Part shown: positions 4,117 to 59,419 of the stretch, piece after piece
How positions within the stretch are numbered: position 1 is the stretch's first letter
Layout: each line of letters begins with the position of its first letter
Origin: Candidatus Heimdallarchaeum aukensis
Lineage (GTDB): Archaea; Asgardarchaeota; Heimdallarchaeia; Heimdallarchaeales; Heimdallarchaeaceae
Direction of reading: 5' to 3'
NCBI GenBank assembly: GCA_021513695.1
Contig: CP084166.1
Span: 576,001 to 640,000, forward strand
Length of the DNA: 64,000 nt
Position numbers and translations under genes: made by a program
The notes under the pieces: model-generated
Databases searched by the model: none
Told to the model about the DNA's origin: nothing
Seen by the model: only the letters and a program-made list of their open reading frames with translations

Positions 4117-7100
4117 TTACACCGCTGTTGCCCACTCTTCACCAAACAACTGTGCTTGCTCCATTATTAATTTAATCGCATTAGGAGTTTGATCTGGTGG
4201 ATATTTATACTTTCGCAATAGTTTACGAATCTCAATACGCATGCGAGCTTGAACACTTTTTCTTACTGTGAAATCAATTGTAGCAGAATTTCGAACCTTA
4301 GCAACTAACTCTTTTGCTATTTTCTTTAATGTTTCATCACCCATTTCTCTTACAGCACTTTCATTTGTAGCTAAAGCATCATAAAAAGCAACTTCATCAT
4401 CATTTAATCCAAGTTCTTCTCCCTTTTTGAAAGCTTTTTGCATATCTTTCGCTAATTGAATCAATTCCTCTAAAATTGCAGCAGAAGCTATTGTACGATT
4501 GATATATTTGTTAATAGATTTCTGAAGTAATTCCTCAAAAGAACGAGATTGAACTAAATTCTTTTTAGCTCTAGAACGAATTTGATCCTTCAACAATTTA
4601 TTTAAAACCTCAACAGCTAAATTCTTTTGTTTTAATCCTCTAACTTCTTCAAGAAATTTATCAGAAAGAATAGAAATTTCTGGTTTATCCAATCCTGCTG
4701 CAGAAAAAATGTCTATAACATCTTCTGAAATAACAGCTCTAGAGATTAATTGTCTAATTGCATAATCAACTCTTTCTTTACGTTCTTTGGAAGGAGTAGT
4801 AGCTTTTACAAAACCAGCACGTACAGCTTGGAAAAAAGCTAAATCATCTCGAATAGCTAAAGCTTCTTCATGAGGAATAGCAAGAGAAAAGGCTTTATTT
4901 AGTGCTGAAAGGTTATCTAAAAACCTTTTTTTAGCACTTTCTGGAGTTTCATTAGGTAAATTAAGAATATGTTCCATAGCAGCAGGAAGTAATTGTAATC
5001 TTTGTAAAGCACTTCCTGTTTTAAACAAAGAATAATCAAAATTGTAAAACATATCTGAAACAATTTCATAATATGTTTTCATTAATTCTACAGCTTTTTC
5101 TTGAGGAATAGCTGTTTGTTCTCTTGACTCTACATTAGAATACCTAGATAATGCTTGCTTAAGAAAATAACCTATACCAATATAATCGACAATAAGACCT
5201 CCAGGTTTATCTTTATATACTCTATTTACTCTAGCTATCGCTTGCATTAAATTGTGTCCTTGCATTGGCTTATCTACATACATTGTATGCATACTAGGCA
5301 CATTAAAACCTGTTAACCACATATCTCTTACAATAACAAGTTTAAGTTCGTCCTCAGGATCTTTCATTCGATTTTCAATAATTTTTCTTTTTCTTTTAGG
5401 CCTAATGTGTGAACGCAATAATTGATCATCAGCAGCAGAACCGCTAATTACAACTTTAATGAAACCTTTTTGATCATCATTAGAATGCCACTCAGGCCTT
5501 AGTTTTATTATTTCATTATACAATAAAGCACAAATCCTGCGAGACATACAAACAATCATACCCTTTCCATCTATAATCTCAAGTCTTTTTTCAAAATGAT
5601 TTACAATATCCTCAGCTACTTCACGTAACCTATCGGGATCAGAAACAAGCCTTTCGACTCTTGACCACTTAGATTTCAATTTTTCTCGAGCATATTCTTC
5701 TTCATCTTCTGTGATTTCATCAAATTCTTCATCGATTTGACCCTTCAATTCTTCATTAAACTTAATTTTAACTAACCTTGATTCATAATAAATAGGAACA
5801 GTAGTTTTATCTCTTATTGCTTGTGAAATATCATAAATGCTAATATAATTACCAAAAACATGAATCGTATTTCTGTCGACAAGTTCTACAGGAGTAGCAG
5901 TAAAAGCAATAAAAGAAGCATTAGGCAGAGCTTGACGAATATAAGCAGCAAAACCTTCTTTTAATGAACCTTTTTCAGAAAGTTTTTTTCCAAAAGAATA
6001 ATGACTTCTATGAGCCTCATCAGCAATAACAATGATATTCCTCCTCTCAGATAAAAGAGGATATTGTGCATTCTCTTCAGGAAGAAATTTTTGTATTGTA
6101 GTGAAAATTACACCACCACCGGTTGTTTTAAGCAAATCCTCAATATTATCTTTTGTCGCTTCATGATTTTTTGGATTGTACCTCCTTGCTGTGGCTTGAA
6201 TAGAAGTTTGACGAAGAAGATCCCTTGATAAAGTAAAAGTTGTAAAAAGTTGGTCATCTAAATCGTTTCTATCAGTAATAACAACGACAGTAGGATTGTT
6301 AAGTAGCTGGATTAACTTTGCGGTATAAAATAACATTGTAAGACTCTTACCAGAACCTTGAGTATGCCAAACAACACCAATCTTTTGATCACCATCACTT
6401 CCAGTAGCTCGTAAAGTTTCCTTAATAGCACGATTAACAGCATGATATTGATGATAAGCAGCAGATTTCTTGACTATTGTTCTACCATCGTCTTCAAAAG
6501 TAATAAAAAATCTGATGTAATCTAAAAAACGAGAAGGTTCTAAAATACCACGAAATAAAACTTCAAGAGATAAGATTGATTGGTCAGCTAATATCTCTCC
6601 CTCAATAGTGCGCCAGGGAGTAAAACGCTCCCAATTAGCAGATAAACTGCCAGCTTTAGATTCATAACCATCACTAATAACAATTAACTCATTAGTCCTA
6701 AATAAAGAAGGAATTTCTTTTTTATAAGTCTGAATTTGATTATAAGCATCTCTTGTAGTCGTTTCTTCTTTAGATGGGTTCTTAAGCTCAATAACTACTA
6801 AAGGAATACCATTAACAAAGAGAACAATATCAGGTCGGTGATTGTGTTTGTCAGAACCAACACCTTCTATAACAGTAAATTGATTTACAGCTAAAAAATC
6901 ATTATTCTCAGGATTCTCAAAATCAATAACTCGTACTATATCTCCCTTTACACGACCATCATGGTAATAAGAGACTTCTACACCATCAACTAACATTCTA
7001 TGAAAAGAACGATTGTTTGTTAATAAATCAGGAGAATCAATACGGTTGAGTTTCTGCAAAACATCTTCAAGCACTTCTTTAGGTTTATCAGGATTAAGTT

Positions 7101-7272
7101 TATGTAAAGCTGATTTTAGTCTATCTTTAAGAATAATCTCACTATATGATAACCTTTCAGGATTATTTCCTGTTGGTGCAATATCTGGACCAAACTTGGT
7201 ATCATAACCTAATTCTCTTAAAATTTCCATAGATGCTTCTTCTAACTCTTTTTCAGTTATTTTCATAATCAA
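4117..7272 (-). CDS. hsdR: type I restriction enzyme R subunit (SF2 helicase/endonuclease)
   Basis: Helicase motif I WHTQGSGKSLTM, motif II IADEAHRSHY (DEAH), motif III FTATP, motif VI QAIARVNRV; 1051 aa. Overlaps hsdS by 20 bp. Confidence 0.9.
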   Translation of the reverse strand: MIMKITEKELEEASMEILRELGYDTKFGPDIAPTGNNPERLSYSEIILKDRLKSALHKLNPDKPKEVLEDVLQKLNRIDSPDLLTNNRSFHRMLVDGVEVSYYHDGRVKGDIVRVIDFENPENNDFLAVNQFTVIEGVGSDKHNHRPDIVLFVNGIPLVVIELKNPSKEETTTRDAYNQIQTYKKEIPSLFRTNELIVISDGYESKAGSLSANWERFTPWRTIEGEILADQSILSLEVLFRGILEPSRFLDYIRFFITFEDDGRTIVKKSAAYHQYHAVNRAIKETLRATGSDGDQKIGVVWHTQGSGKSLTMLFYTAKLIQLLNNPTVVVITDRNDLDDQLFTTFTLSRDLLRQTSIQATARRYNPKNHEATKDNIEDLLKTTGGGVIFTTIQKFLPEENAQYPLLSERRNIIVIADEAHRSHYSFGKKLSEKGSLKEGFAAYIRQALPNASFIAFTATPVELVDRNTIHVFGNYISIYDISQAIRDKTTVPIYYESRLVKIKFNEELKGQIDEEFDEITEDEEEYAREKLKSKWSRVERLVSDPDRLREVAEDIVNHFEKRLEIIDGKGMIVCMSRRICALLYNEIIKLRPEWHSNDDQKGFIKVVISGSAADDQLLRSHIRPKRKRKIIENRMKDPEDELKLVIVRDMWLTGFNVPSMHTMYVDKPMQGHNLMQAIARVNRVYKDKPGGLIVDYIGIGYFLKQALSRYSNVESREQTAIPQEKAVELMKTYYEIVSDMFYNFDYSLFKTGSALQRLQLLPAAMEHILNLPNETPESAKKRFLDNLSALNKAFSLAIPHEEALAIRDDLAFFQAVRAGFVKATTPSKERKERVDYAIRQLISRAVISEDVIDIFSAAGLDKPEISILSDKFLEEVRGLKQKNLAVEVLNKLLKDQIRSRAKKNLVQSRSFEELLQKSINKYINRTIASAAILEELIQLAKDMQKAFKKGEELGLNDDEVAFYDALATNESAVREMGDETLKKIAKELVAKVRNSATIDFTVRKSVQARMRIEIRKLLRKYKYPPDQTPNAIKLIMEQAQLFGEEWATAV

Positions 7273-7960
7273 TTTCCGCCAAAAATTTTTCTATATTAGT
7301 AATTCGAAGCCTACCTGAGATAAGTTGAGGAAGTAGAATATCTCTTAATTTAATTAAAATATTAATTTCATCCTTATTTTTTCTAATTTTTTCAAAGATT
7401 GGGTCAATTATTTCTCTAAACTTTAGTAAAGTAGTCTTATCAGGTTTTATAATCGGAATCCTAAAAAGGTTACTTTGATTAATTTTTAATTGTACTGCAC
7501 CAGTTATATAAGGTCTAATGTTTATATTCATGAGATGTAACATAACAAATTCTGTACAAAATTCATTTTTTCCTTGTATTACATGAACATGATTATTCGC
7601 CCAAAATTTTCCATGTACATATTGTAAGATGGGTTTTTCATTGTTATCAATAACTGAACCATCTTCTGCCATTAAGAGAAAAATGCCATCAAAAATGTAA
7701 TCATCAATATAGTCTAAAATACTAGCTGCCCCATAATATGGATAAATACCTTTTCTTACCTTTCTTTCTATTTTTGATAAAGGAATTCTTTTTGAATCAT
7801 ATATACTTATGACTTCTTTGAGCGTCCCAACTTCCCATCCTTTTGGTATTTCTTTATCTACTTCCTCATTATATTCAAATTCGCCATCTTTGAAAGGTTC
7901 AAAATCAATAAACCAAGATCTGAAGATAGTTTGGGCTATCTCTTCTAAAACTTTGTTCAT
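7253..7960 (-). CDS. hsdS: type I RM specificity subunit, half-size (central conserved motif + one TRD + C-terminal conserved helix); probably 5'-truncated
   Basis: Begins with the HsdS central conserved block IFRSWFIDFEPF and ends with the C-terminal conserved LRDILLPQLISGRLRI. Only 235 aa versus about 400-450 for two-TRD HsdS. No hsdM upstream; an IS lies 130 bp away. Confidence 0.7.
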   Translation of the reverse strand: MNKVLEEIAQTIFRSWFIDFEPFKDGEFEYNEEVDKEIPKGWEVGTLKEVISIYDSKRIPLSKIERKVRKGIYPYYGAASILDYIDDYIFDGIFLLMAEDGSVIDNNEKPILQYVHGKFWANNHVHVIQGKNEFCTEFVMLHLMNINIRPYITGAVQLKINQSNLFRIPIIKPDKTTLLKFREIIDPIFEKIRKNKDEINILIKLRDILLPQLISGRLRITNIEKFLAEIDYENN

Positions 7961-8092: not shown

Positions 8093-8855
8093 GGTAGTGT
8101 CTAGTTTTCTTCCGACAAAAATATTTGTGGGGACTCTAATAGTAAGATATGAACATTCAAAAACTATCTACTCTTTTTAAGAGATGCAGAGTCCCCAAAA
8201 AAATAATAATAAAAGCTATTTATGAATATATTGGTTCAAAGAATGGGTTGAGGACAGTAGCATGGAAGAATGGTTTAACGCATCAAACATTATGGTATTG
8301 GGTAAAGAAGTTCAGGCTCTTTAGGGAAAGTTTACATAGAGTTGTAGCAGAGAGAGGGGGAATACCAGAGATTATAGTAGTAGATGAAACAGAGATTAGG
8401 ACCTCTCAAGGCTCAATATATCTGTGGTTCGCGTTAGATCCTTACAACAAGACTTTACTGGGTTTTAGTATTACTAAAGGACGGAGTAATCTTGAATGTT
8501 TACTAACTTTCCGTTATTGGCTCAAATGTTGGGGTTTTAAGCCTCGTATTGTCGTTACAGATGCAGGAGTATGGTATCCTGTCTTACTTCGTCTAGGTAT
8601 CAAAATCTCCGTTATCAAAGGTGGTTTACGCTCCTATATTGAACGTTTTAATGCTACTCTTAAGAGTTATCGTTGGTTTCATTCTATTCTCCACTGCACT
8701 TGTCCTATCCGTGCCGTCTATGGCTCTACTCATCTTTCTGGTTTTCTTACTCTCTTTATGCTCTATTATAATTTCGTTCGTCCTCATCAGAGCTTAGGAC
8801 ATCCTCCCCTTAGTTCCTTTTTACCTAGGAGGTGGTATAAAAACTAGACACTACC
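8093..8855 (+). mobile_element. IS6-family-like insertion sequence (~763 bp) with 16-bp terminal inverted repeats
   Basis: Left IR ggtagtgtctagtttt (8093..8108) and its perfect reverse complement aaaactagacactacc (8840..8855), flanking a single transposase ORF. No clear target-site duplication. Confidence 0.7.
8149..8847 (+). CDS. DDE transposase, IS6-like
   Basis: 232 aa. VVDETEIR...VVTDAG...RPHQSL blocks resemble IS6/IS26 Tnp (DETY...D...E spacing). The N-terminal 64 aa are repeated at 43001..43195. Confidence 0.75.
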   Translation: MNIQKLSTLFKRCRVPKKIIIKAIYEYIGSKNGLRTVAWKNGLTHQTLWYWVKKFRLFRESLHRVVAERGGIPEIIVVDETEIRTSQGSIYLWFALDPYNKTLLGFSITKGRSNLECLLTFRYWLKCWGFKPRIVVTDAGVWYPVLLRLGIKISVIKGGLRSYIERFNATLKSYRWFHSILHCTCPIRAVYGSTHLSGFLTLFMLYYNFVRPHQSLGHPPLSSFLPRRWYKN

Positions 8856-24906: not shown

Positions 24907-26205
24907 TTGCTTGTTATGACTACTTCAGAAGAGTCAATACCAAGTGATAAATTTCTGAACTTAGAAAAAAATAAGATAGTAGAGGGAGAGATATTAAAAG
25001 AAACGGATAAGGAAAAAATAACACTAACTCCTAAAACAGGAAAAACAAGAAGTAAATTTGAATTGTATTTCTTTAGTACAGAAGTAATACTTATGATCGC
25101 GGGTATTGTTATTCTAATTTTAGTTTCAATTAGTCCTTGGCTTTTCTTTGAACACAATTTAATAATAAATAGAGATGAGTATGGAACAGTAATCAGCACA
25201 AGTATGTATATTGGAGATTTATCCCCATTGGCATTAGGATTAACTACTGTTTGCTTGATGTTTCCTTTATTAAACAACTATTTGTACATTTTTGTATTAG
25301 AAAGTGAAAAAAGATTAAAAGCTTATATTATACGATCTGCTACAAATGCAATAGCTTTAGCAGTAATGCTTGCTGTAAAAGCAAATGGAATTTATTTTAA
25401 AAGCAATTATTCACAGGCAGTTTTTTTTGCAATTTATACACTTTTTGGAAACTTTTACTTGAGAACAGCCTTATTGTTTACAAGAAAAAAATCAAAGAGT
25501 ATCTTATTCAGCAGAATAGAATCAGCTTCTCCAGCAGAAATAGAATGGAAAAAATACAACAAAATTTCAGGTTATCTAGCAGTAATATTAGGAATATTCA
25601 TGCTGCAGTTTATTTGGTTAATATACCATCTCATAATTAGACCTGCAAAAATAAACAAAACAAAGGATCAACTAATCATTGAATTTTTGGATTTTGGCCA
25701 AGAAGTAAACTGTAGTAAAATAGCCTTAGAGCTCGCCATTTCGCTTGAAGAAGTAATTTATAGAATAAAAAAGCTAGTATTTAAAGAACAAATCTCTGGA
25801 GAGTTTTCACGTTATGGTTTTATTTTACATGAGATAAAAAATCCAAAATGGTTCTCAAATAAAGTATCCGAGAAATACGAAGCATTTATTCTGACAGTGA
25901 AAATGTCAGAAAAAGAAAAGCATGTTAACAGATTCTTTGATATAGCGGAAAGAAAGAAGATTAGTGTTAATGAATTTAGAAGAATATTTAAGATCAAAGA
26001 TGATTATATCATAAGTGATTTTGTTCTATTACTACCTCCCCATACTGTTAAATTGAGAAAAAACATTGTATTAGGAAAGCAATTCCTTTTATTTAACTAT
26101 GATTTGATCTTGATGAAAAGAAAGCAAATCAAAGAAAGTTTGCTTTACCACTTTGACGAAGTATTTAACCTAAAGATTACTGAAAAGGTAAAAACAAAAA
26201 AATAA
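24907..26205 (+). CDS. membrane protein (N-terminal TM bundle) with C-terminal helical, wHTH-like soluble region
   Basis: 5-6 hydrophobic helices in the first 250 aa; no catalytic motif. Confidence 0.4.
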   Translation: MLVMTTSEESIPSDKFLNLEKNKIVEGEILKETDKEKITLTPKTGKTRSKFELYFFSTEVILMIAGIVILILVSISPWLFFEHNLIINRDEYGTVISTSMYIGDLSPLALGLTTVCLMFPLLNNYLYIFVLESEKRLKAYIIRSATNAIALAVMLAVKANGIYFKSNYSQAVFFAIYTLFGNFYLRTALLFTRKKSKSILFSRIESASPAEIEWKKYNKISGYLAVILGIFMLQFIWLIYHLIIRPAKINKTKDQLIIEFLDFGQEVNCSKIALELAISLEEVIYRIKKLVFKEQISGEFSRYGFILHEIKNPKWFSNKVSEKYEAFILTVKMSEKEKHVNRFFDIAERKKISVNEFRRIFKIKDDYIISDFVLLLPPHTVKLRKNIVLGKQFLLFNYDLILMKRKQIKESLLYHFDEVFNLKITEKVKTKK

Positions 26206-26355
26206 ACTACTTATCTATTATACATTTTTTCTTTTTCGATCTTCTTTTTGCTTTTTATTTTTTCATAGAAATTTGTATTCTGAGTCTTTTTTAAAAGAAA
26301 CAATTTTTAGATTTTTTAGATAAAATTTATTTAGTAGCATTACATTTGGATTTTT

Positions 26356-27426
26356 ATGATATGGCTTTCTTTATCTTATTCAATTTTTTCTTTAATAATT
26401 TTAACAATGTTTCTGATTGTTATTATTATAAAACAACTTGAACTTCGATGTACAGCAGTTTATTTTCTAATCATGATCATTGTATCTATTATTGGATGGA
26501 TAGTTGGAGATATGTTACAGATCATTTTTAGCAGCTTGGAAAATAAAGAATTGGTTCTCCTATTTTCACGAATAGCTACTATAAGTAGCATGATTGCAAT
26601 GATTAGCACAGTCTTATTTGCTAGAGTTCTAACTGCTCGTCAAACTTTGAATTCAACAATCGTAATTATTGCTTTCATGTTGTTTAGTGCTGTCGTTGCT
26701 CTCACTTTAAGTTCTAGTTATAAAGTAATTGATCCACCTAAAGATGTAGAATTTTACAAGACCGAAGCAGAACTCTTATGGGTAATTTTTGATGGAGTTT
26801 TGGTAATATTTGCTGGTTCTGTTTTCCTTTACTATCTTATTCGACAAAGAAAAATTGTACAAAAAAGATACTTACCTGTTTTAACTTTAATGAGCGTAGG
26901 AGTCATAATCGCTTTCTTTGTTAGCACTATCCTTTACACAATTTATGCGATATGGTTTATTGTTCCTTTATTACATTTAGAACTGGTAAGCGCTAGTTTA
27001 GGCGCAATAATAATAGGAATAGCAATGATCAAAGGAGGAAAAGAAGCAATTTACTATTCATCAAGAGTTTTCTCATTACATATTTTTGATGAAGTAGGAA
27101 TAAGCTATTATGCTAGTGTTTTTCAAGCAGGATATATAGTTGATGAGCAATTAATCTCAGGAGTAGCATCAGCTATTATAAGTTTTGCAAAAGAACTAAT
27201 CGGAAAAGAGGTTTTTCCACGAGAAATAGATCTTGACGATTACTCATTATTACTAGCTAAAAAAGACAATATAATTATTCTAATAAGCGTGGAATATCCT
27301 ACTGCACATCTAAGACAGACGATGAACAATATTATTGAAAAATTCAGTATGGATATGAGTGAAGAGGAAATAGGAAATCTTGTTGAAAACTATATATGCT
27401 TTGAACCAAGAAAACTAGTCCACTAA
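26356..27426 (+). CDS. polytopic membrane protein with C-terminal Roadblock/LC7 (MglB-like) domain
   Basis: About 8 TM helices. C-terminus ...GISYYASVFQ...LISGVASAIISFAKELIGKEV...DDYSLLLAKKDNIIILISVEYP fits the beta-alpha-beta-beta Roadblock pattern also seen in 46018.. and 57494.. Confidence 0.5.
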   Translation: MIWLSLSYSIFSLIILTMFLIVIIIKQLELRCTAVYFLIMIIVSIIGWIVGDMLQIIFSSLENKELVLLFSRIATISSMIAMISTVLFARVLTARQTLNSTIVIIAFMLFSAVVALTLSSSYKVIDPPKDVEFYKTEAELLWVIFDGVLVIFAGSVFLYYLIRQRKIVQKRYLPVLTLMSVGVIIAFFVSTILYTIYAIWFIVPLLHLELVSASLGAIIIGIAMIKGGKEAIYYSSRVFSLHIFDEVGISYYASVFQAGYIVDEQLISGVASAIISFAKELIGKEVFPREIDLDDYSLLLAKKDNIIILISVEYPTAHLRQTMNNIIEKFSMDMSEEEIGNLVENYICFEPRKLVH

Positions 27427-28313: not shown

Positions 28314-30413
28314 TTATAGTAAAGGAATTAATCCTGCTCCACCGTTAATGAGCATTAGTAATCCCATAAAGATGGATGAGGTTAGACTCATTACTACTAG
28401 TAAAGTGTTTATTGATGGTCCTGCTGTATCTTTGAATGGATCTCCTACAGTATCTCCAGTTATTGCTGCTTTATGAGTTTGTGTTCCTTTTCCTCCTAGG
28501 TTTCCATCTTCTATCCATTTCTTTGCGTTATCCCAAGCTCCTCCTGCATTACTCATGAATATAGCAAACACGAAACCAGAGAGTATTGACCCTGCTAGAA
28601 ATGCACCTAAGGAAGCTACTCCGAAGAATATTCCTACAAGTAGTGGTAACATAATTGATATTATACTTGGTAGTATTAACTGTTTTAATGATCCTTTTGT
28701 AGCAATTGCGATTGTTTTTGAGAAATCTGCAGGTTCTTCTCCTGTTAGAATCTTTGGATTTTCTTTGAACTGTCTTCTTATCTCATCAACCATCTTTGCT
28801 GCGTTCTTCTGTACTCCTAAAATCAGTACTGCACTAAATAATGCTGGAGCCATAACTCCAAAGAATGCGCCTATTAACACATTTACTGATAGCAAGTTTA
28901 TTCCACTTTCTACTATTCCAGCTTCTTGAGCATATGAGAACATTAGTGCTACTACAGCTAGATTTGCAGCTCCTATTGCAAAACCTTTAGTAATTGCTTT
29001 GGCTGTGTTTCCTGCAGAGTCTAATCTATCAGCAATGCGAATAGTTTCTTCTCCTAAACCACCTTGTTCAGCGATAGCTCTTGAATTGTCTACAATTGGG
29101 CCATAGGCATCATTTGAAACAATGGTTCCTACAATAGCCAACATTCCTACTGCAGCCATTGCTACTCCAAATTGTGCATCAAGTAAGTAAGCTAAGAACA
29201 TAGCGATAATTATACCTACTCCTGGAGGCACAACGCTTATAAGTCCATAGGAAAATCCAGAAAGGATTACTAGTGCATCTCCCTCTTCAGCTGCTTTAGC
29301 AATGTTTCTTGTTGGAGGAAGATCATCTCTAGTAAAGTAGTCACTTGTCCAACCAATGACAATTCCGCTAGCAAGACCTAGTATAACAGCAAGATAGTTT
29401 CTCCACAGGCGACTAATATCTTCTTGAGTTAAGGAATTGTTCAAAGTCATAAGCCAGACAATAAATGCACCTAAAGCTGCAAATATCAAAGTAGCTAAAT
29501 AAGTTCCAAGGTTTAGAGAACGTCCAGGGTTATCAGAACTTATTATTTTGATAATGAAAATACCAATTAATGAAGCGATGAGTCCAATTCCTGAAAGCAC
29601 GAGAGGATAGACAATAAAAGTTTCTTTAGCAGCAGACAGAATAAGAGAATTAGCTAAAATCATAGCGGCAACAATGGAAGCTACATAAGAGTCAAATAGA
29701 TCAGAACCCATTCCAGCTAGATCTCCGACGTTATCTCCTACATTATCTGCAATTGTAGCAGGATTTCTTACATCGTCTTCAGGTAAGTCGAATTCACTCT
29801 TACCAACTAAATCTGCACCTACATCAGCTGTTTTAGTATATATTCCTCCACCACATTTCATGAACAGTGCAATTGTACTAGCTCCAAAACTGAACCCTAG
29901 TACCACATATGGTGATTGGAATATCCAGTACAATCCTGAAACACCTATTAGTGCAGCACCTACTACTGCTAAACCCATTACAGCTCCTCCGAAGAAAGCA
30001 ATGTCAAAACCTTTCTTTGTTCCTACAGTACAACCTTGTGCAGCTCTTGTATTTGCTTTTACTCCAACCATCATTCCTAACCAACCAGCAATCATACTTG
30101 CTGCTGAACCTATGAGATAAGATATAGCTTGCTCCCAGTTTAGATCTCCAGCAACAACAGGAACTTTATATTCTGTCATTTCAGAAGGTAAGAATAGTAG
30201 AATTACTAAGAATAGTATGAATACAAAGATGCTAAGCACTGTGTATTGAACCTTCAAGTAAGTTTCTGCCCCTTTTTCTATATAACCTGAAACTTCTTGC
30301 ATTTTTTCATTTCCAGGGTCTTCTTTCATGACTAAGAATGCGAAGAAAACCGCCATTCCTATCGAAATTACCCCTGCTATTAGCGATACAAGTAAAATTA
30401 ACGGTACAGCCAT
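28314..30413 (-). CDS. hppA: membrane-bound proton/sodium-translocating inorganic pyrophosphatase
   Basis: GGIYTKTADVGADLVGK, DNVGDNVGD, GNTAKAITKGFAIGAA and DTVGDPFKDTAGPS signature blocks; 699 aa, polytopic. Confidence 0.92.
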   Translation of the reverse strand: MAVPLILLVSLIAGVISIGMAVFFAFLVMKEDPGNEKMQEVSGYIEKGAETYLKVQYTVLSIFVFILFLVILLFLPSEMTEYKVPVVAGDLNWEQAISYLIGSAASMIAGWLGMMVGVKANTRAAQGCTVGTKKGFDIAFFGGAVMGLAVVGAALIGVSGLYWIFQSPYVVLGFSFGASTIALFMKCGGGIYTKTADVGADLVGKSEFDLPEDDVRNPATIADNVGDNVGDLAGMGSDLFDSYVASIVAAMILANSLILSAAKETFIVYPLVLSGIGLIASLIGIFIIKIISSDNPGRSLNLGTYLATLIFAALGAFIVWLMTLNNSLTQEDISRLWRNYLAVILGLASGIVIGWTSDYFTRDDLPPTRNIAKAAEEGDALVILSGFSYGLISVVPPGVGIIIAMFLAYLLDAQFGVAMAAVGMLAIVGTIVSNDAYGPIVDNSRAIAEQGGLGEETIRIADRLDSAGNTAKAITKGFAIGAANLAVVALMFSYAQEAGIVESGINLLSVNVLIGAFFGVMAPALFSAVLILGVQKNAAKMVDEIRRQFKENPKILTGEEPADFSKTIAIATKGSLKQLILPSIISIMLPLLVGIFFGVASLGAFLAGSILSGFVFAIFMSNAGGAWDNAKKWIEDGNLGGKGTQTHKAAITGDTVGDPFKDTAGPSINTLLVVMSLTSSIFMGLLMLINGGAGLIPLL

Positions 30414-31974: not shown

Positions 31975-32547
31975 TTGAACTCCATGACAGAAAAACAGTT
32001 TATTTTCAAAATTGTACTTATTGGTGATGGCGCAGTAGGAAAAACTTCTATTAGAATGCAATATATGGGATACGGATTCAATACCAGTCATCTTATGACC
32101 CTGGGAGCAGATTTTTCATCTATTGATAAAGAAATTATTCCTAACGAAAAATGGAAATTTCAAATTTGGGATTTAGCAGGACAACAAATGTTTGAACAAG
32201 TTCGAGCTCGTTTTTACAAAGGAGCTCAGGGTGCCTTACTTGTCTTTGATATCACTCGCCCTTCCTCTTTTCAAAACCTTCCCATGTGGTTAAACGAATT
32301 GTATAAATTCAACGGATCAGGAGTTGTCCCTGTTGTAGTCCTTGCTAATAAGAGTGATTTGAGAGATAGAAAAAGTGTTAAATTCAAACATGTAGAAAAA
32401 TATGTTTCTGAATTAAATCTGCGTACCCAACGCTATGGTGTAACTAATTATTGTTTAGAAACAAGTGCCAAGACTGGATTAAACATCGATAGAGCTTTTG
32501 AAATTCTCGGGAGAAGCATTCGAGATAAATCAAGCAAAAAAACATAA
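31975..32547 (+). CDS. Rab/Ras-like small GTPase (canonical motifs)
   Basis: G1 GDGAVGKTS; switch I TLGADF; G3 WDLAGQ; G4 LANKSDL; G5 ETSAK. Confidence 0.8.
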   Translation: MNSMTEKQFIFKIVLIGDGAVGKTSIRMQYMGYGFNTSHLMTLGADFSSIDKEIIPNEKWKFQIWDLAGQQMFEQVRARFYKGAQGALLVFDITRPSSFQNLPMWLNELYKFNGSGVVPVVVLANKSDLRDRKSVKFKHVEKYVSELNLRTQRYGVTNYCLETSAKTGLNIDRAFEILGRSIRDKSSKKT

Positions 32548-32628: not shown

Positions 32629-33195
32629 ATGCTCACATTTAAGATCCTTTTTATAGGCGATAATAGCGTAGGTAAAACTACTTTATTTAAAAAAATTGTT
32701 CAAAATGAAAAAAATAAAGAAAAGATCCCTTCTCTAAAAGCAGAAATAGTAAAAGTTTATCGTACAATCCAAGGAGAAGAAGTAGCTTTTGAACTATATG
32801 ATTTACCTGCGAGAGAACTTTTATCATCTCCTCAAAGAACAAAATGGTATTTAGGGACTGATGGAGCGTTTATAGTTTTTGACATTACAAAAGCAGAAAC
32901 GTTCAGAAGAGTAACATTCTGGCTAGAACAATTAATAAATTATAACAGAAAAGGGAAGATACCTATAGTATTAGTAGGTAATAAAATAGATATGAGAGAC
33001 AATCCTAATGTGAGAAATAGGACACTAAACCCTATAGATGCTCAAGCTTTCTGTCTTCGACTAAATCGTACATCAGCTAGAGAAGGAATTAATAATGAAT
33101 TCTTCGAAGTCTCAGCAATCTCAGGGAAAGGTTTAACTCAATTACTTGATGCATTAGCTAAAAATATTTATAACCATCACAAAAAAATAAAATAG
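32629..33195 (+). CDS. small GTPase paralogue with degenerate switch I/II (G3 = DLPARE)
   Basis: G1 GDNSVGKTT, G4 VGNKIDM and G5 SAISGKG are intact. Switch I reads SLKAEI and the DxxGQ motif is replaced by YDLPARE (no Gly, no catalytic Gln). Confidence 0.7.
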   Translation: MLTFKILFIGDNSVGKTTLFKKIVQNEKNKEKIPSLKAEIVKVYRTIQGEEVAFELYDLPARELLSSPQRTKWYLGTDGAFIVFDITKAETFRRVTFWLEQLINYNRKGKIPIVLVGNKIDMRDNPNVRNRTLNPIDAQAFCLRLNRTSAREGINNEFFEVSAISGKGLTQLLDALAKNIYNHHKKIK

Positions 33196-43312: not shown

Positions 43313-45883
43313 ATGTCTTCTAAAGATAAAAAACAATCTTCAGAACTAGAAAAAGCGATATTAGAAGCAAAATCAAGATTACAAAAAGTTGTTTCAAAGA
43401 AAGAAGGAAAATATATAAGAAAAAACGAATTAGAAAATGCGATTAATGAAGCTATTAGGAGTTTAAAACCTGTTTCTGAAGAATTAATTAATAAAAAAAT
43501 GAAAAACAGTGCTTTTAAAGAAGAACTATTAAAAGCAAAGTCTGAACTAAAACAAGTAAAACAAGCAAAGAAGAGAGTAACAAAGAACGAAATGGAATTA
43601 GCTATTAAAGAGGCTATTAAAAATCTAAAACCAATAACTGAAAAAGGAAAAAAACAAATGACTTCAAAAGGAGAACTAGAATTAGCCATTTTAGACGCTT
43701 TTTCTAAACTCATAGAAGTTTCAGAAGAAGAGAAAAACTATGCATTAACTAAAAAAGAACTGGAAATAATAATAAGAGATGCAAAGAGTAAATTGAAAAA
43801 AGTGCCAGGAAAAGAACTTAGGCACGCATTATCTAAAAAAGAGATTGAGCACGAACTAAGAGACCTAAAAAGAAAATTAAAACCTGTTCCAGAACAAGTA
43901 AAAGTTCCAGAACTCTCAGTTAAACAACTTAGAACAGCAATTAAAGAAGCAAAAGTAAGATTAAAACCAGTTCCAGAGAATTTAAAAAGCATAAGTTCTA
44001 TCTCAGTGGGAAGATCAATCAAGAAAGAAGGAGAGAAAATAAAAAGGAAACTTCTTCCAATTCCAGGAGACGCAAAAACTTTTGAAATACAAAATATCGA
44101 ACATATTAAACTCTTTTCTGCAGAAAGATTGGATTTCAAGAAGTTCTTAATAAAACTAGAAAAACAGAAACAACAACCACTACTAAAAATAATAATCAAT
44201 CCAAAAACAAAGTTCTGTAAGATAGAATTAATGAACAAAGATAACCCCACTTCTCCATACAACATTACGGCGGGAGGAGATATTTTAGAATTCACATATA
44301 CTTATCGTTTCTTATTTAAACACGGTTACATAAAAATAGAGAATAACTACCCTCTACTCCTTTCAGATAAACAATGGATTGTGTGGTATCTGAGAGAAAA
44401 AATAGAATTAACTTTCGTGGATATAGCCTTTGCAATGGACGAAACAGTAAGAAACGTGAGAAACTTGTTCAATCAAGCAGAAAAAAGAATAAATCAAATA
44501 CTAGACTTCGTTGTAAATGAAGAGCATTACCAGCTAGTTGCAGCACATGCAATGAAAAGAAAAGGAGTAAGAATACAACAGATTGGAGATACAATAATAG
44601 AGCCAAAAATTACAGAAAAATATCTGATTGAACAACAACAACTAGAAGAGCTAACACATATTGAAGAACTTGAAAAGAAAGTAGAAATACCAAGAGAGTG
44701 GGTAATAAAAACAGCTTATAAAATAGAAACACTAAAGGGAGGATATTATCTGTGGAAAGAGTTTCTAGGAGCACTAAACAAAGATTCCCTGTTGATGATA
44801 GAGAACGACAGCTTACCCCACGAAGAAGAATACTTGATAAACGCAATAGGTTTAGGAGGAGAGATAATTCCTGACATCAAGAGCAACTTCAAAAAACTCA
44901 TAGACATATTCTCAGAAGCTCCAGATGAACTAGTAAAAATAGGAGATACAGCCTTTTTCATGGGTTATATGGATAACATTTATTCTAGCCAATTTTGGAA
45001 TATAAGAAACTTCGTTAAAGGAAACAGGAAAAATTGGAAAAAAGATTTCGTAAAAATAGCAATAAAAGCATATTCAAAAGCTCTAGAAAAAATTAACCCA
45101 GCAGTTTATCCTATAAAGTACGGAGTGCTAAAAAACGATTTAGGAGTGTTCTACTTTTTTCTATCAGAACTAGAGCAAACTAAAAAGAATACTCTAGAAG
45201 CAATCAAAAATATGCAAGAAGCAAAAAATGCATTACCTTTAGAATTCTTTAAAACAAAACATAGCGATATATGCTACAATTTAGGACTAGCCCACTTATT
45301 AATTTCAAAAATAGAAAACAAAGAAGAGAACATAAAACAGGCAATTCTAAATTTCAATTTTGCCCTACAAGGAAGAACATTAAGAATGTACCCTCTAAAA
45401 TACGCGATAACGGAAGTAAATCTAGGAATAGTCTACCAAAAACTGGCAGAAATAGAAGAAACGTCATTAAACTGCACACTAAGTATAGAATCTTATAACA
45501 ACGCTCTACGATCAAACACACTAGACATAATGCCCACAGAAGCAGCAATGATATACAACAACATAGGACTAGCTTATTGCACATTATCAAAAGAACAAGA
45601 AACAGAATACAATATTTCACAAGCATTAATAGTACTAAACGATGCTTTAACAATAAGAAATGAAGCACAGTTCCCAGTTGAATACGCAATAACAACAAGT
45701 ATTTTAGGAAAAGCTTACACAATTTTAGCTACAGTCAAAGAAACAAAAAAGAATTACGAAAAAGCTATATCTGCATTTAACAAAGCAATTAGAATATTTA
45801 TCAAGAAATACGAAGATTTCTATCAAGCTATAATTCATGAAAAGGAGAAAATTGAAGAAAAACTAATAGATATTTCACAATAG
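43313..45883 (+). CDS. large repeat protein: N-terminal ~9 Lys/Glu-rich 25-30-aa tandem repeats, central sigma-70-region-4/LuxR-like HTH, C-terminal TPR-like helical repeats
   Basis: Repeats ELEKAILEAKSRLQKV / ELENAINEAIRSLKPV / MELAIKEAIKNLKPI ... LRTAIKEAKVRLKPVPE. HTH candidate LSDKQWIVWYLREKIELTFVDIAFAMDETVRNVRNLFNQAEKRIN. Minus-strand ORFs here are shadows. Confidence 0.55.
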   Translation: MSSKDKKQSSELEKAILEAKSRLQKVVSKKEGKYIRKNELENAINEAIRSLKPVSEELINKKMKNSAFKEELLKAKSELKQVKQAKKRVTKNEMELAIKEAIKNLKPITEKGKKQMTSKGELELAILDAFSKLIEVSEEEKNYALTKKELEIIIRDAKSKLKKVPGKELRHALSKKEIEHELRDLKRKLKPVPEQVKVPELSVKQLRTAIKEAKVRLKPVPENLKSISSISVGRSIKKEGEKIKRKLLPIPGDAKTFEIQNIEHIKLFSAERLDFKKFLIKLEKQKQQPLLKIIINPKTKFCKIELMNKDNPTSPYNITAGGDILEFTYTYRFLFKHGYIKIENNYPLLLSDKQWIVWYLREKIELTFVDIAFAMDETVRNVRNLFNQAEKRINQILDFVVNEEHYQLVAAHAMKRKGVRIQQIGDTIIEPKITEKYLIEQQQLEELTHIEELEKKVEIPREWVIKTAYKIETLKGGYYLWKEFLGALNKDSLLMIENDSLPHEEEYLINAIGLGGEIIPDIKSNFKKLIDIFSEAPDELVKIGDTAFFMGYMDNIYSSQFWNIRNFVKGNRKNWKKDFVKIAIKAYSKALEKINPAVYPIKYGVLKNDLGVFYFFLSELEQTKKNTLEAIKNMQEAKNALPLEFFKTKHSDICYNLGLAHLLISKIENKEENIKQAILNFNFALQGRTLRMYPLKYAITEVNLGIVYQKLAEIEETSLNCTLSIESYNNALRSNTLDIMPTEAAMIYNNIGLAYCTLSKEQETEYNISQALIVLNDALTIRNEAQFPVEYAITTSILGKAYTILATVKETKKNYEKAISAFNKAIRIFIKKYEDFYQAIIHEKEKIEEKLIDISQ

Positions 45884-46017: not shown

Positions 46018-48018
46018 ATGAAAAGTTTTTTACCTAAATTTCTGCTTAATGAAATCGATCTTTATTTAGATGATTCTCAGAAGTCTATTTTTGAAGAGAA
46101 GGTTAAAAGTATTGTAAGTAATGCTTCTGACTATGATACGATTTCCAAGGACATTACTGCCTTTCTTTTGAATGAAGATTTTACTGATTTAACGACTTAT
46201 GATCAAATGCTTATTCTTGTTTCAATTCTTCTAAATTACTGGAAAAAGGATTATTCTCTTATTTTTAGCATCTATGACAAATTTCATTCTTTTGATTTAC
46301 CTCTTAGCGTTATGATTTGTTTTCTTCTATTTTTTCAAGAATCTTTTGATTTAACCACTTTTAACCTTTGGAGAGAGAAGATAGAAGAGTACATTACAAA
46401 CATTTCTGATTCTACTGAAAAAGAATTTCTTAAAACTGCTATTGAGCAATTTGCTTCTAAGCTTGAGCAAAGGCCTGAGGTTGGTTATCGTTCTATGAAT
46501 CAGCTTATTCGTTCTCTTGAGGAGAATGAGCATATTTCTTATCGATATCCTTTTGTTTTCGAGGCTTTAGAGATTGATCTTATTCAGTACTCTAACATTT
46601 TAGCTGATGAAGTTTTTTCTGAAATCTGGATTGAGTCCGCTAGAAGAAGAGCTGAAGTTATGGAAAACTATGGCATGTTAGTTCAAGTTAACAGCCTTCT
46701 TGCTAGTATTTTAGTTAAAGAGTATCATCTTGAAAAAGCTAAAGAGAAAATTGAGGAGGGGTTAGAGATTGCTAAGAGGATCAATTCTCCTATTTTAGCT
46801 GCTCAAATTGAGTTGAACAAGGCCTTGTTATTGAAGATGCAAGGTAAGTTGGACGAAGCTTTGAAGTTATATGAAAAAATTGCTAAAGTTAAGAATCTTC
46901 CTCAAACTTTTCAATTGGATATTTACAGTAAAATAGGTGAAATTTATCTCAACAAGGACGAGATAGTTAAAGCTGAAGAATACTACCTTAAAGCTCACGA
47001 GATTAATAAGAAACTTAATTTTATCAATCCTCTTGTTGAAATAGTTATAGGTTACATTAACCTGATTTTAGAGAAAGATAAGGGGGAAGCTTTAGATGAG
47101 GGGTTGAAGATTGCTGAAGAACAGTTTGATTTTTCTTCTATTCCTTACTACTACTTCTACAAAGGTATTTATGAGCAACAAAGGGTTAACTTATCCTTAT
47201 CTATTGAATACCTTGAACAAGCTTTGAACTCTTTTGAGCACCAAAAGAACTTTGAGGGTATTGTTTATACTAACGGTGCATTGGCAGAGTCTTATCTTCA
47301 GATTTACAAGCTTCTTCACGATAACAAATATTCTTCTCGGTTCCTCTATTATATTGACAATCTTATTGAAATACTAAAGGAGTTAAACAATCCTTTGTAT
47401 GTTGAAGCAATAAAGACTAAAGCAGGTTACTATTTAGATAAAGGTTTAATTAAAAATGCTGAAGATCTGTTTATTGATGGAATAGAATTTGCTAGGACAC
47501 GAGGATTAAAAGAGGAAGAAATATATCTTAAGGAATCGCTTACTAACAAGAAGAATTTAACAAAAATAACTTTAGAAGGTACTCAAATACTCTTTAGAAA
47601 AATAAGGATGTTCAGCTTTGGTAAGCATAAAACTGTTCCCACCAAATTATACTTACTTTTAGCCATTAATGAAGCTGGAATTCCTTTAGTTTCTCACTCT
47701 TTTACTGAAGAAGAGATGGTAGATGATCTTTTAGTTTCAGGGTTAATTTCAGCTATAATTAATTTCTCTTCTGAAGTTCTAGGAAAAGGAGGAGAAACCT
47801 TACGATCAATAAATCATGAGGGCAAAGCTGTTATAGTAGAGAAAAAGGACAATGTGATGGGTATCTTAGTTGCTGAAGATGAGAATTTCGAGATGAGACT
47901 GGAACTTAGACAGTTTTTGCAGAAAGCGCTTGATAAGTTAGTTTCTGGACTTCCTATTGTCAGAGAAAACGACAGTGAGATTTTTTCTATTATAGAAGAA
48001 GTTTTTGAGAGAAAATAA
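46018..48018 (+). CDS. TPR-repeat protein with C-terminal Roadblock/LC7 (MglB-like) domain
   Basis: Multiple TPR-like helices in residues 200-520. C-terminal LLLAINEAGIPLVSHSF...LVSGLISAIINFSSEVLG...EGKAVIVEKKDNVMGILVAED matches the Roadblock beta-alpha-beta-beta-alpha layout. Confidence 0.6.
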   Translation: MKSFLPKFLLNEIDLYLDDSQKSIFEEKVKSIVSNASDYDTISKDITAFLLNEDFTDLTTYDQMLILVSILLNYWKKDYSLIFSIYDKFHSFDLPLSVMICFLLFFQESFDLTTFNLWREKIEEYITNISDSTEKEFLKTAIEQFASKLEQRPEVGYRSMNQLIRSLEENEHISYRYPFVFEALEIDLIQYSNILADEVFSEIWIESARRRAEVMENYGMLVQVNSLLASILVKEYHLEKAKEKIEEGLEIAKRINSPILAAQIELNKALLLKMQGKLDEALKLYEKIAKVKNLPQTFQLDIYSKIGEIYLNKDEIVKAEEYYLKAHEINKKLNFINPLVEIVIGYINLILEKDKGEALDEGLKIAEEQFDFSSIPYYYFYKGIYEQQRVNLSLSIEYLEQALNSFEHQKNFEGIVYTNGALAESYLQIYKLLHDNKYSSRFLYYIDNLIEILKELNNPLYVEAIKTKAGYYLDKGLIKNAEDLFIDGIEFARTRGLKEEEIYLKESLTNKKNLTKITLEGTQILFRKIRMFSFGKHKTVPTKLYLLLAINEAGIPLVSHSFTEEEMVDDLLVSGLISAIINFSSEVLGKGGETLRSINHEGKAVIVEKKDNVMGILVAEDENFEMRLELRQFLQKALDKLVSGLPIVRENDSEIFSIIEEVFERK

Positions 48019-57493: not shown

Positions 57494-59419
57494 TTAATTA
57501 ATATATGTTAGAATGAAAGAATCTTGTATAAGATCTTCTATTTTCTTTTCTTCTATTTTGTCAAAAAACTTACCTGTTTTTGGAATGGAAGTTAGTTTAT
57601 GCCATAATTCCTCGAATTTTCCAATGTTATTAACAAAGTTATCTATCTTTTTATTGGCAGTGAAAGAAGAGCCTTTGAACACATAACAAAAGATTATTCC
57701 TTCCTTGTTTTTGAACGTCAAAAAGTAGTCATGATATTCTACTTGCTTGATTGAACCTTCTGTTGCTAAAACCTCTTTTAATATGTTATTTAAAGCAGAA
57801 AGGAATCCTGAAAATAGAATACTGTCATATTTCTCCTCACTAAAGTTATAACTGTAAAGTGGTATTCCATGTTCATTTAGAATAAGCAACATAACTGGAG
57901 TGTCTTTTTCTATTACTTCGAGTTCGTAGCTAACCCTTTGTATCATCTGCGAAACTAAAGTGTCAACTTGTGTTTTTTCTATTCTTTTCTTTATACTCAC
58001 ATCAGAATTAAGAATTGCTTTCCATTTATTATGTTCTCTTACAATTGAATCATATTCTAAACTTATTTTTTGAGCTAAATTGTCTAATCCTTGAGAAAAA
58101 GCTATCTCCTGCGCTTTTAATAAATCCTCTTGAGCTTCATCAAGATTTAGTTGAATTAGATTAATCTTTCCTTTTAACCAGTAAGCTTCTGCTAAGAGAG
58201 ACCTAGATATTTGCATTTCTGCAATTTTTAATAGCTGAATGTTTATATCCTTTAGTTCATCTATAATTTCGCTTTCATTAAAAATAGTAAGCTCTTCTAG
58301 CAATATTTCAGTAAGGTTTAACATCGCATGAATATTTATCTCATTGTAAATTTCATTCGTTCTAATAATAGAATGAAGAAGAGAGATAGCTTTCGCTTGT
58401 GAAACAAATCTTTTTCGCTCTTTTAATACACTTGCTTCTGTTAGTTTAGCATAAAAACTCAAAAACTTGTTTTTTTCCTTTCTAGATAATTTTTTTAATT
58501 CTTTCAAGTATTCCTGAGCTTTCGATATTTGCCCTAGTAAAATGTGTAACTTAGTCAAATAATAGGTGGATTCAGCTATAATATAGTTAAATTTAACTAA
58601 TTTTGCATAATTTATACTTTTATCGAAAAAATCTAAAGCTAGATTAAACTCTCCTTTACTGAAATAAACGATGCCTATATTATTGAAAACTTGTGAAATT
58701 CCAAAAATATTTTCTTTTTCTTGATAGTTAATTAAAGCATCGTTATATAGTTCAACCGCTTTATTTAGATTTCCTTTTAATCTATAAATCTCACCTATAG
58801 AAATTAAAGTATTGTTAATTATTTGCTTCGAGTTTAAAAATTCACCATAAACAAGACACTCTTCAAAACAAGCAAGGCTTTGATTTAGATTTCCTTTTTG
58901 GGCATTTATTTTTCCTTCTCTATATTTTAAAAAAGCATAAATTTTGGTCTCATTCTTCTCTTTAACTAATTGTAAAGATTTTTTTACTAAATTCAGTGCT
59001 CGTGGTAGATCTTTATAGATAACCAGTAAAGCTTGGCAGAGATTGAAAATGGCATTAACTTCATTTTTATCTTTCTTAATTACCTTTGATTTTGTTTTTT
59101 TGAAGTGTAATAAAATTTCTTCACTTTTTTTGTTTTGTGATAAAAGGAGAGAAAAAACCTCTATCAAATAATAGTAAACATAGAAATCATTAGCCATAAG
59201 TTCTTTCTCATTTTCAAGGTAACTTAAAAGTTGAAGGCCAAATACTTTGCAATCCTCTACTTTACCAAACTCATAAGCTGTTTCAACTTTGTGATTTAAT
59301 AAACTTCTTTTTTCAATTGAAGGTTGTTTTCTCTCTTCTTCATGGTTATTTATTTGGGTAATAATTTCAGAATATTTGGTTGAATCTAGAATTTTTTCGT
59401 TTTCTATGAAATCTATCAC
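57494..59419 (-). CDS. TPR-repeat protein with C-terminal Roadblock/LC7 domain (paralogue of 46018..48018)
   Basis: TPR helices through residues 60-470. C-terminus VMLLILNEHGIPLYSYNF...ILFSGFLSALNNILKEVLA...DYFLTFKNKEGIIFCYVFKG. Confidence 0.6.
   Translation of the reverse strand: MIDFIENEKILDSTKYSEIITQINNHEEERKQPSIEKRSLLNHKVETAYEFGKVEDCKVFGLQLLSYLENEKELMANDFYVYYYLIEVFSLLLSQNKKSEEILLHFKKTKSKVIKKDKNEVNAIFNLCQALLVIYKDLPRALNLVKKSLQLVKEKNETKIYAFLKYREGKINAQKGNLNQSLACFEECLVYGEFLNSKQIINNTLISIGEIYRLKGNLNKAVELYNDALINYQEKENIFGISQVFNNIGIVYFSKGEFNLALDFFDKSINYAKLVKFNYIIAESTYYLTKLHILLGQISKAQEYLKELKKLSRKEKNKFLSFYAKLTEASVLKERKRFVSQAKAISLLHSIIRTNEIYNEINIHAMLNLTEILLEELTIFNESEIIDELKDINIQLLKIAEMQISRSLLAEAYWLKGKINLIQLNLDEAQEDLLKAQEIAFSQGLDNLAQKISLEYDSIVREHNKWKAILNSDVSIKKRIEKTQVDTLVSQMIQRVSYELEVIEKDTPVMLLILNEHGIPLYSYNFSEEKYDSILFSGFLSALNNILKEVLATEGSIKQVEYHDYFLTFKNKEGIIFCYVFKGSSFTANKKIDNFVNNIGKFEELWHKLTSIPKTGKFFDKIEEKKIEDLIQDSFILTYIN

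Follow-up and report, generated by a model that had tools for sequence, protein, structure and literature searches.

Candidatus Heimdallarchaeum aukensis (contig CP084166.1, positions 576,001 to 640,000; this whole stretch of 64,000 nucleotides is the window below) encodes, at 26356-27426, a protein in which a bundle of seven transmembrane (TM) helices is joined to a cytoplasmic longin domain. This structural description, computed from predicted models and profiles and comprising the open reading frame (ORF), its conservation, the seven helices, the cytoplasmic orientation, and the longin fold with its order of elements, is very probably correct. We propose that the protein is an Asgard-wide, stand-alone membrane sensor with a longin platform for a Ras-superfamily GTPase, and we put the probability of this whole chain at about 0.45. 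The step to the GTPase, which is argued by analogy, is tentative and is given distinctly less than an even chance.

The ORF starts with ATG at 26356 and ends with the stop codon at 27424-27426 on the + strand. A search of 5.8 billion proteins returned 23 homologs with 35-100% identity and lengths of 354-383 aa, and those bearing names came from Heimdallarchaeota/Heimdallarchaeaceae metagenome-assembled genomes (MAGs). In alignment A1, the homologs were colinear from end to end, with conserved length and no frame disruptions. These results indicate that the ORF, judged by its sequence conservation, is a real gene. No Pfam domain was found in any of the 23 homologs, and neither the whole target protein nor its isolated tail gave anything usable against Pfam and NCBIfam. 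In the closest named relative, a Heimdallarchaeaceae MAG (44.9 kb contig), the ortholog was called as two adjoining ORFs of 146 aa and 178 aa (P0208 and P0171; ACTSRR_01305 and ACTSRR_01300), 92-96% identical to the target. The split may reflect a frameshift, pseudogenization, or faulty assembly.

AlphaFold2 (AF2) with the family alignment placed TM helices at residues 2-30, 33-59, 64-93, 101-118, 140-167, 170-200, and 203-233 (full-length model; predicted local distance difference test [pLDDT] 80.9, predicted template modelling score [pTM] 0.81), and hydropathy gave seven segments in the target and most homologs. The number of TM helices is therefore seven and not eight, as the original prediction had it. 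In 18 full-length homologs, loops 1-2, 3-4, and 5-6 and the segment after TM7 contained on average 1.4, 2.3, 3.5, and 2.1 K+R, respectively, against 0.3 at the N-terminus and 0.8, 1.1, and 0.6 in loops 2-3, 4-5, and 6-7, and loop 4-5 was acidic. By the positive-inside rule, the K+R bias places the N-terminus outside and the C-terminal domain in the cytoplasm, in agreement with the AF2 model and with the topology on which the original prediction depended. The predicted hairpin in the loop between TM4 and TM5 occupies the same position as extracellular loop 2 (ECL2) of G protein-coupled receptors (GPCRs), and the length of this loop differs among homologs.

The predicted helix bundle superposed on solved GPCRs, and its computed fold is GPCR-like. 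Neither GPCR sequence homology nor class signature motifs were found in the target, and no known seven-TM (7TM) sensor family model in Pfam or NCBIfam matched it. The full-length family profile, run against PDB sequences, gave only low-complexity TM matches, to a designed coiled coil and to LH1 protein W, and these were discarded. Nine residues within the helices, all toward their outer ends, were at least 85% conserved in the Heimdall-subfamily alignment (W48, D52, Q55, T117, W142, S190, Y194, H207, and E209). Since the polar set among them (all except W48) lies in the outer half of the bundle, it may line an outward-facing pocket for a ligand or ion in the modelled structure.

TM7 leads through a short linker, in which G227, G228, Y233, and S236 are each at least 90% conserved (A1), into a soluble C-terminal domain of ~120 aa. 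In the full-length AF2 model, its elements are β1 (238-245), β2 (250-255), α1 (262-282), β3 (290-292), β4 (297-303), β5 (306-312), α2 (317-329), and α3 (336-346). A second model, of the domain alone and based on an alignment of 65 sequences (A4; pLDDT 87.9, pTM 0.80), agreed with the full-length model in the order β-β-α-β-β-β-α-α, which is that of longin domains. The β-β-α-β-β-β core is common to this domain and Roadblock/LC7, longin being the sister fold of Roadblock in one superfamily. The modelled domain is assigned to the longin class of the Roadblock/longin superfamily. Its closest structural neighbors were solved longin domains, with scores of 11.4 for Bet5 and Ccz1, 11.2 for Trs23, 11.1 for delta-COP and again for Ccz1, 11.0 for MON1 and AP-4 mu, and 10.9 for human CCZ1, and these alignments spanned 103-112 residues. 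Conservation within the domain was strongest in α1, with the motif L-I-S-G-x-x-S-A-I-x-x-F-x-x-E (LISGvaSAIisFakE in the target).

The sequence links were each weak, yet all pointed toward longin families. Six of 92 sampled family members matched PF19036 ("First longin domain of FUZ, MON1 and HPS1") at E<=1e-3, and a stand-alone member (P0069) scored 27.5 bits against a gathering score of 26.1 for this model. Another member (P0060) weakly matched Sybindin (TRAPPC1/C4), and the TPR paralog at 46018-48018 weakly matched PF19036 (E 0.033). When the 65-sequence profile was run against all PDB sequences, the top matches were Bet5 (0.0035), Trs23 (0.015), a second Bet5 (0.017), and MON1 longin domain 1 (LD1; 0.089); a Roadblock protein (0.39) and AP-4 sigma (1.2) were also retrieved.

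The profile of the tail (A2) matched 603 clusters at E<=1e-3 among 1.84 billion representative proteins, and only 8 further proteins were gained when the domain profile was used in a word-indexed homology search. Among the 150 best representative clusters, 32 were proteins of 300-400 aa with 5-8 predicted TM segments and a C-terminal copy of the domain; 18 had nine or more TM segments in addition to the domain, 44 were long soluble proteins, many with TPR repeats, and 28 were short or stand-alone. All source-named members are Asgard archaea (Heimdallarchaeia, Hodarchaeales, Promethearchaeota [Loki], Helarchaeota, Odinarchaeota, and Thorarchaeota), and they are annotated throughout as "hypothetical" or "membrane protein of unknown function." Profile searches thus describe an Asgard-wide family with a range of architectures. 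A profile of the TM domain of the target reached Odin 7TM proteins at about 1e-14, and Hel members were colinear but weak, indicating that the 7TM-longin architecture is old within Asgard. Searched by itself, the TM domain gave no new architecture, the 7TM module being only ever joined to longin.

Among soluble members of the family, the TPR-longin architecture is the most frequent, and two such paralogs are encoded in the window, at 46018-48018 (666 aa) and 57494-59419 (641 aa). The original prediction had counted a third Roadblock-type C-terminal domain in the window, on a polytopic membrane protein instead of TPRs; the third copy and its membrane attachment were recovered, but not the Roadblock type. 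An 856-aa TPR protein (43313-45883, +) was tested as a further carrier and rejected, since it lacks the domain. Its N-terminal ~220 residues consist of repeated K/E-rich units of ~35 aa (...ELE.AI.EA...LKPV...), with TPR repeats C-terminal to them. TPR-longin proteins could supply a heterodimer partner for the target.

In the sensor mechanism that we propose, the GPCR-shaped bundle, with its N-terminus outside, would sense a signal, and its conformational changes would be relayed via TM7 and the short conserved linker to a cytoplasmic longin of the TRAPPC1/C4 and Mon1/Ccz1 type. Through the conserved α1, with its small-xxx-small motif SGxxSA, and through the edge of its sheet, the longin would dimerize either with that of a second target molecule or with that of a soluble TPR-longin paralog. 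The pair would form a flat platform for a Ras-superfamily GTPase, like longin/Roadblock dimers elsewhere, and would place the GTPase at the membrane or activate it there in the manner of a guanine nucleotide exchange factor (GEF). The ligand pocket, the dimerization, the GTPase binding, and the direction of regulation are steps that we infer. In all characterized longin/Roadblock systems, dimers form through the α1-type helix and its neighboring strand, and a small GTPase binds on the surface of the dimer, as in TRAPP-Ypt1, Mon1-Ccz1-Ypt7, MglB-MglA, and Ragulator-Rag (PMC10933270).

Several points weigh against this proposal. The GTPase contact is drawn from analogy, and longins can also act independently of GTPases, as they do in SNAREs, adaptor sigma/mu subunits, and SRX. 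All structures considered here are predictions; helix α1 had a pLDDT of only 47-58 in the full-length model, although it was high in the domain-only model, and with seven-helix proteins AF2 may tend toward GPCR-like packing. Conservation of the polar residues of the putative pocket is confined to the Heimdall subfamily, and they are lost in distant Loki, Hel, Thor, and Odin relatives, in which the persisting positions (F88, G111, G182, G216, and partly W48) are structural only. The tail matched no Pfam model at E<=10, curated longin models and Robl_LC7 included, so that its link to longins is transitive and structural. Finally, in seven homologous loci (three Heimdall-type contexts plus Loki, Hel, and Odin), neither a second copy of the domain nor a conserved GTPase, second longin, or other partner was found within 6-8 kb. 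A GTPase gene lay near the homolog in one sub-lineage only, ~7 kb away on the opposite strand. In the window, two Ras-family GTPase genes lie in tandem (31975-32547, E 4e-40, and 32629-33195, E 6e-26, against Pfam Ras; both +) ~4.5 kb downstream of the target, beyond a VKOR gene and two transporter-type genes on the minus strand; this pair is not linked to target homologs in other genomes. Gene order therefore does not support a GTPase association, which agrees with the finding that MK-D1 GTPase genes generally lie outside operons with Roadblock or longin genes (PMC10933270).

The same absence of GTPase linkage in the seven loci would fit a longin that serves as an adaptor only, forming heterodimers with TPR-longin paralogs or another cytosolic partner and tethering scaffolds to the membrane without any GTPase. 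At least two TPR scaffold proteins of the 64-kb window terminate in this domain, long soluble proteins make up nearly a third of the top clusters (44/150), and the most conserved feature is the α1 helix, the dimer interface of the superfamily. On the other hand, longin/Roadblock dimers mostly act on GTPases and are repeatedly fused to them in Asgard archaea (PMC10933270), and Asgard genomes contain dozens of orphan small GTPases without lipid anchors. We consider the adaptor explanation doubtful.

The 7TM domain may instead be a transporter, channel, or intramembrane enzyme, with the longin tail as a regulatory or ligand-sensing module comparable to GAF/PAS-like domains. The conserved charged or polar residues D52, H207, and E209 within the TM helices are consistent with such an activity, the longin domain is also fused to transporter-looking proteins with 10-15 TM segments, and longins have been grouped with GAF/PAS-like folds (PMC4917890). 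We regard this as unlikely. Similarly unlikely is an archaeal one-component receptor-GEF, in which a GPCR-fold sensor would bind a ligand and its TRAPP/Mon1-type longin output would recruit and activate a Ras-superfamily GTPase; if so, the 7TM sensor possibly shares ancestry with eukaryotic GPCRs.

The original prediction had described the tail as a Roadblock domain of the MglB/LAMTOR type, so that the protein would anchor a Rag- or MglA-like GTPase at the membrane in the way of Ragulator. It had proposed a structural comparison with MglB and LAMTOR, and both were indeed among the matches: MK-D1 Roadblock3 (10.9), MglB (10.8), and LAMTOR2/p14 (10.0) followed close behind the longins, as expected for a Roadblock/longin-like fold. 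However, these alignments spanned only 88-100 residues, shorter than those with longins. Roadblock domains have one helix before β1 and at most one after β5 (PMC10933270), whereas the target domain has none ahead of β1 (residues 1-6 are coil in the domain-only model, and the preceding helix in the full-length model is TM7 itself) and two after β5. Robl_LC7 was undetected for the target at E<=10 and was not among the 25 most frequent Pfam families of the 92 sampled members, and all sequence-level links lead to longin families. Membership in the superfamily thus stands, but element order, structural matches, and profile links speak against the Roadblock type, and we consider a Roadblock tail improbable. 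A spurious ORF or chance domain similarity, conceivable in an AT-rich genome (28% GC locally, in a low-GC window) that yields long random ORFs on other strands, is already refuted by the sequence conservation, as full-length homologs keep length and motifs even at 35% identity, AF2 yields confident models, and the domain profile retrieves hundreds of clusters.

Table 1. Features of the 7TM-longin gene and of related domains in the window
Feature	Coordinates	Strand	Basis
Complete ORF, 356 aa + stop; 7TM, then predicted cytoplasmic longin domain	26356..27426	+	ORF list, homologs, alignment A1, AF2
7TM bundle, residues 1-233, N-terminus outside, GPCR-like predicted fold	26356..27054	+	
Predicted beta-hairpin, residues 122-125/135-138, in the acidic extracellular TM4-TM5 loop	26719..26769	+	AF2 (pLDDT ~72), A1, loop charge
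Short conserved linker, end of TM7 to longin strand β1, KGGKEAIYYSSR	27031..27066	+	Alignment A1
Predicted cytoplasmic longin domain, residues 238-346	27067..27393	+	
AT-rich TATA-like element ataaaatttattta, 23-36 nt 5' of ATG	26320..26333	+	Direct sequence reading
T-rich tract immediately 3' of the stop codon	27427..27448	+	Direct sequence reading
Paralogous longin domain, C-terminus of the 666-aa TPR protein	47635..48009	+	BLASTP 7e-11, 29% identity; hidden Markov model (HMM) 2.3e-35; TPR by Pfam
Paralogous longin domain, C-terminus of the 641-aa TPR protein	57515..57910	-	HMM 3.2e-25; TPR by Pfam

The gene is preceded by an AT-rich intergenic gap of 150 nt, which holds the TATA-like element, a possible archaeal promoter; the T-rich tract is a possible archaeal terminator (Table 1). 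Together, the two flanks suggest a stand-alone transcript, as far as can be read from the nucleotides. A scan for sigma-70 promoters and intrinsic terminators was uninformative for an archaeon. The upstream neighbor (24907-26205, +; 432 aa, TTG start call uncertain) has several TM segments and a soluble C-terminal half of ~200 aa; it belongs to no Pfam/NCBIfam family and is not kept beside target homologs. Amidohydrolase, NIPA, and IF-2B neighbors were rejected as operon partners, as they are kept within one Heimdall sub-lineage only. A Dak2 gene is present in the window and again in one other locus (L002), a loose recurrence, and the tandem GTPase pair of the window is followed by a YdjM-family membrane protein gene. 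In two Heimdall loci (L003, 15064-16628; L004, 6191-7755), two small unannotated ORFs of 149 aa and ~120 aa adjoin a Ras-family GTPase gene, and the same pair occurs without a GTPase gene in a third such locus (L001, 15361-16172). The small ORFs gave no match to the longin profile used and could be Roadblock-type partners.

Elsewhere in the window, a 699-aa polytopic protein (28314-30413, -) carries motifs of the membrane H+/Na+-pyrophosphatase type (DNVGDNVGD and GGAWDNAKK, as seen in the translation). A 1314-aa protein (59680-63624, +) combines FG-GAP and bacterial TSP3 repeats with a C-terminal double zinc ribbon and a weak RING-finger match (zf-RING_2, E 0.004). Type I restriction-modification R and S subunits (4117-7960, -, and 8149-8847, +) adjoin a degenerate rve-type integrase ORF, which suggests a mobile or defense island.

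Asgard genomes encode dozens to >100 small GTPases and many longin/Roadblock domains (PMC4917890; PMC10933270). Asgard archaea lack prenylation, guanine nucleotide dissociation inhibitor (GDI), and known eukaryotic GEF complexes, and their GTPase genes are rarely in operons with regulators (PMC4917890; PMC10933270); for these reasons, the delivery of Asgard GTPases to the membrane has been a puzzle since Lokiarchaeum. The 7TM-longin family is a concrete candidate for bringing Asgard GTPase signaling to the membrane. If the receptor-GEF explanation were true, receptor-to-GTPase signaling and membrane targeting of GTPases that lack lipid anchors would predate eukaryotes. Experimental confirmation of the GPCR-like fold would be relevant to the dispute over a prokaryotic origin of the GPCR fold. 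Should no GTPase bind, this is still a large unannotated family of membrane-anchored longins that deserves a curated family model.

In superfamily, organisms, and presumed role as a GTPase platform, the target resembles the longin and Roadblock proteins known from earlier work on Asgard archaea (Klinger 2016; Liu 2021; Tran 2024, PMC10933270; PDB 8yqg, 9jue, and 7yh1). Lokiarchaeum alone has 41 longin-like and 38 Roadblock domains, and the superfamily comprises 130 Asgard clusters of orthologous genes (asCOGs). In published cases, the domain either forms a protein of its own or is joined to GTPases, TRAPPC3, DENN, or two-component domains, and there is probably overlap between the stand-alone members of the present family and the "TRAPPC1-like longin" that was modelled from MK-D1. 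Fusion of a longin to a 7TM/GPCR-like or polytopic membrane domain is not described in the surveys of Asgard eukaryotic signature proteins, in the structural-modelling survey PMC12962969, in the 2026 GPCR-origin review, or in literature searched by keyword, a comparison that leaves aside the asCOG supplementary tables of Liu et al.; an unpublicized asCOG for the family may exist.

Compared with eukaryotic receptors of the GPCR fold (classes A, C, D, and F; the GPCR-like domain of LYCHOS/GPR155), the target has no detectable sequence similarity or signature motifs and no heterotrimeric G protein, its output domain being fused to the receptor. The GPCR likeness of the predicted model may be convergent or generic to seven-helix bundles. 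One-component prokaryotic 7TM sensors are known, and Escherichia coli DgcT/CdgI have been termed GPCR-like (PMC10760455). The target shares with these and with 7TMR-DISM proteins the one-component logic of a 7TM domain joined to a cytoplasmic signaling domain, but their outputs are GGDEF, HD, kinase, and similar domains, longin not being among them. Unlike promiscuous bacterial 7TM modules, that of the target is found with longin only.

The longin domains of the Rab-GEF cores TRAPP Bet5/Trs23 (TRAPPC1/C4) and Mon1-Ccz1 (LD1), with which eukaryotes switch on Rab GTPases, belong to soluble complex subunits that are recruited to membranes peripherally. By contrast, the longin of the target is covalently fused to a 7TM domain and falls below all Pfam thresholds, including those of the corresponding models (PF04099 Sybindin; PF19036 and PF19031). 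In the longin SNAREs VAMP7, Sec22, and Ykt6, the longin is N-terminal and is followed by a SNARE coiled coil and one C-terminal TM helix; in the target, the longin is C-terminal, seven TM helices precede it, and a coiled coil is absent. With Ragulator (LAMTOR1-5, with Rag GTPases at lysosomes), it would share the idea of a membrane-attached GTPase platform of the Roadblock/longin superfamily. In Ragulator, however, the Roadblock domains are held at the membrane by lipidated LAMTOR1 and TM segments are absent, whereas here a longin domain is carried directly on a predicted 7TM bundle.
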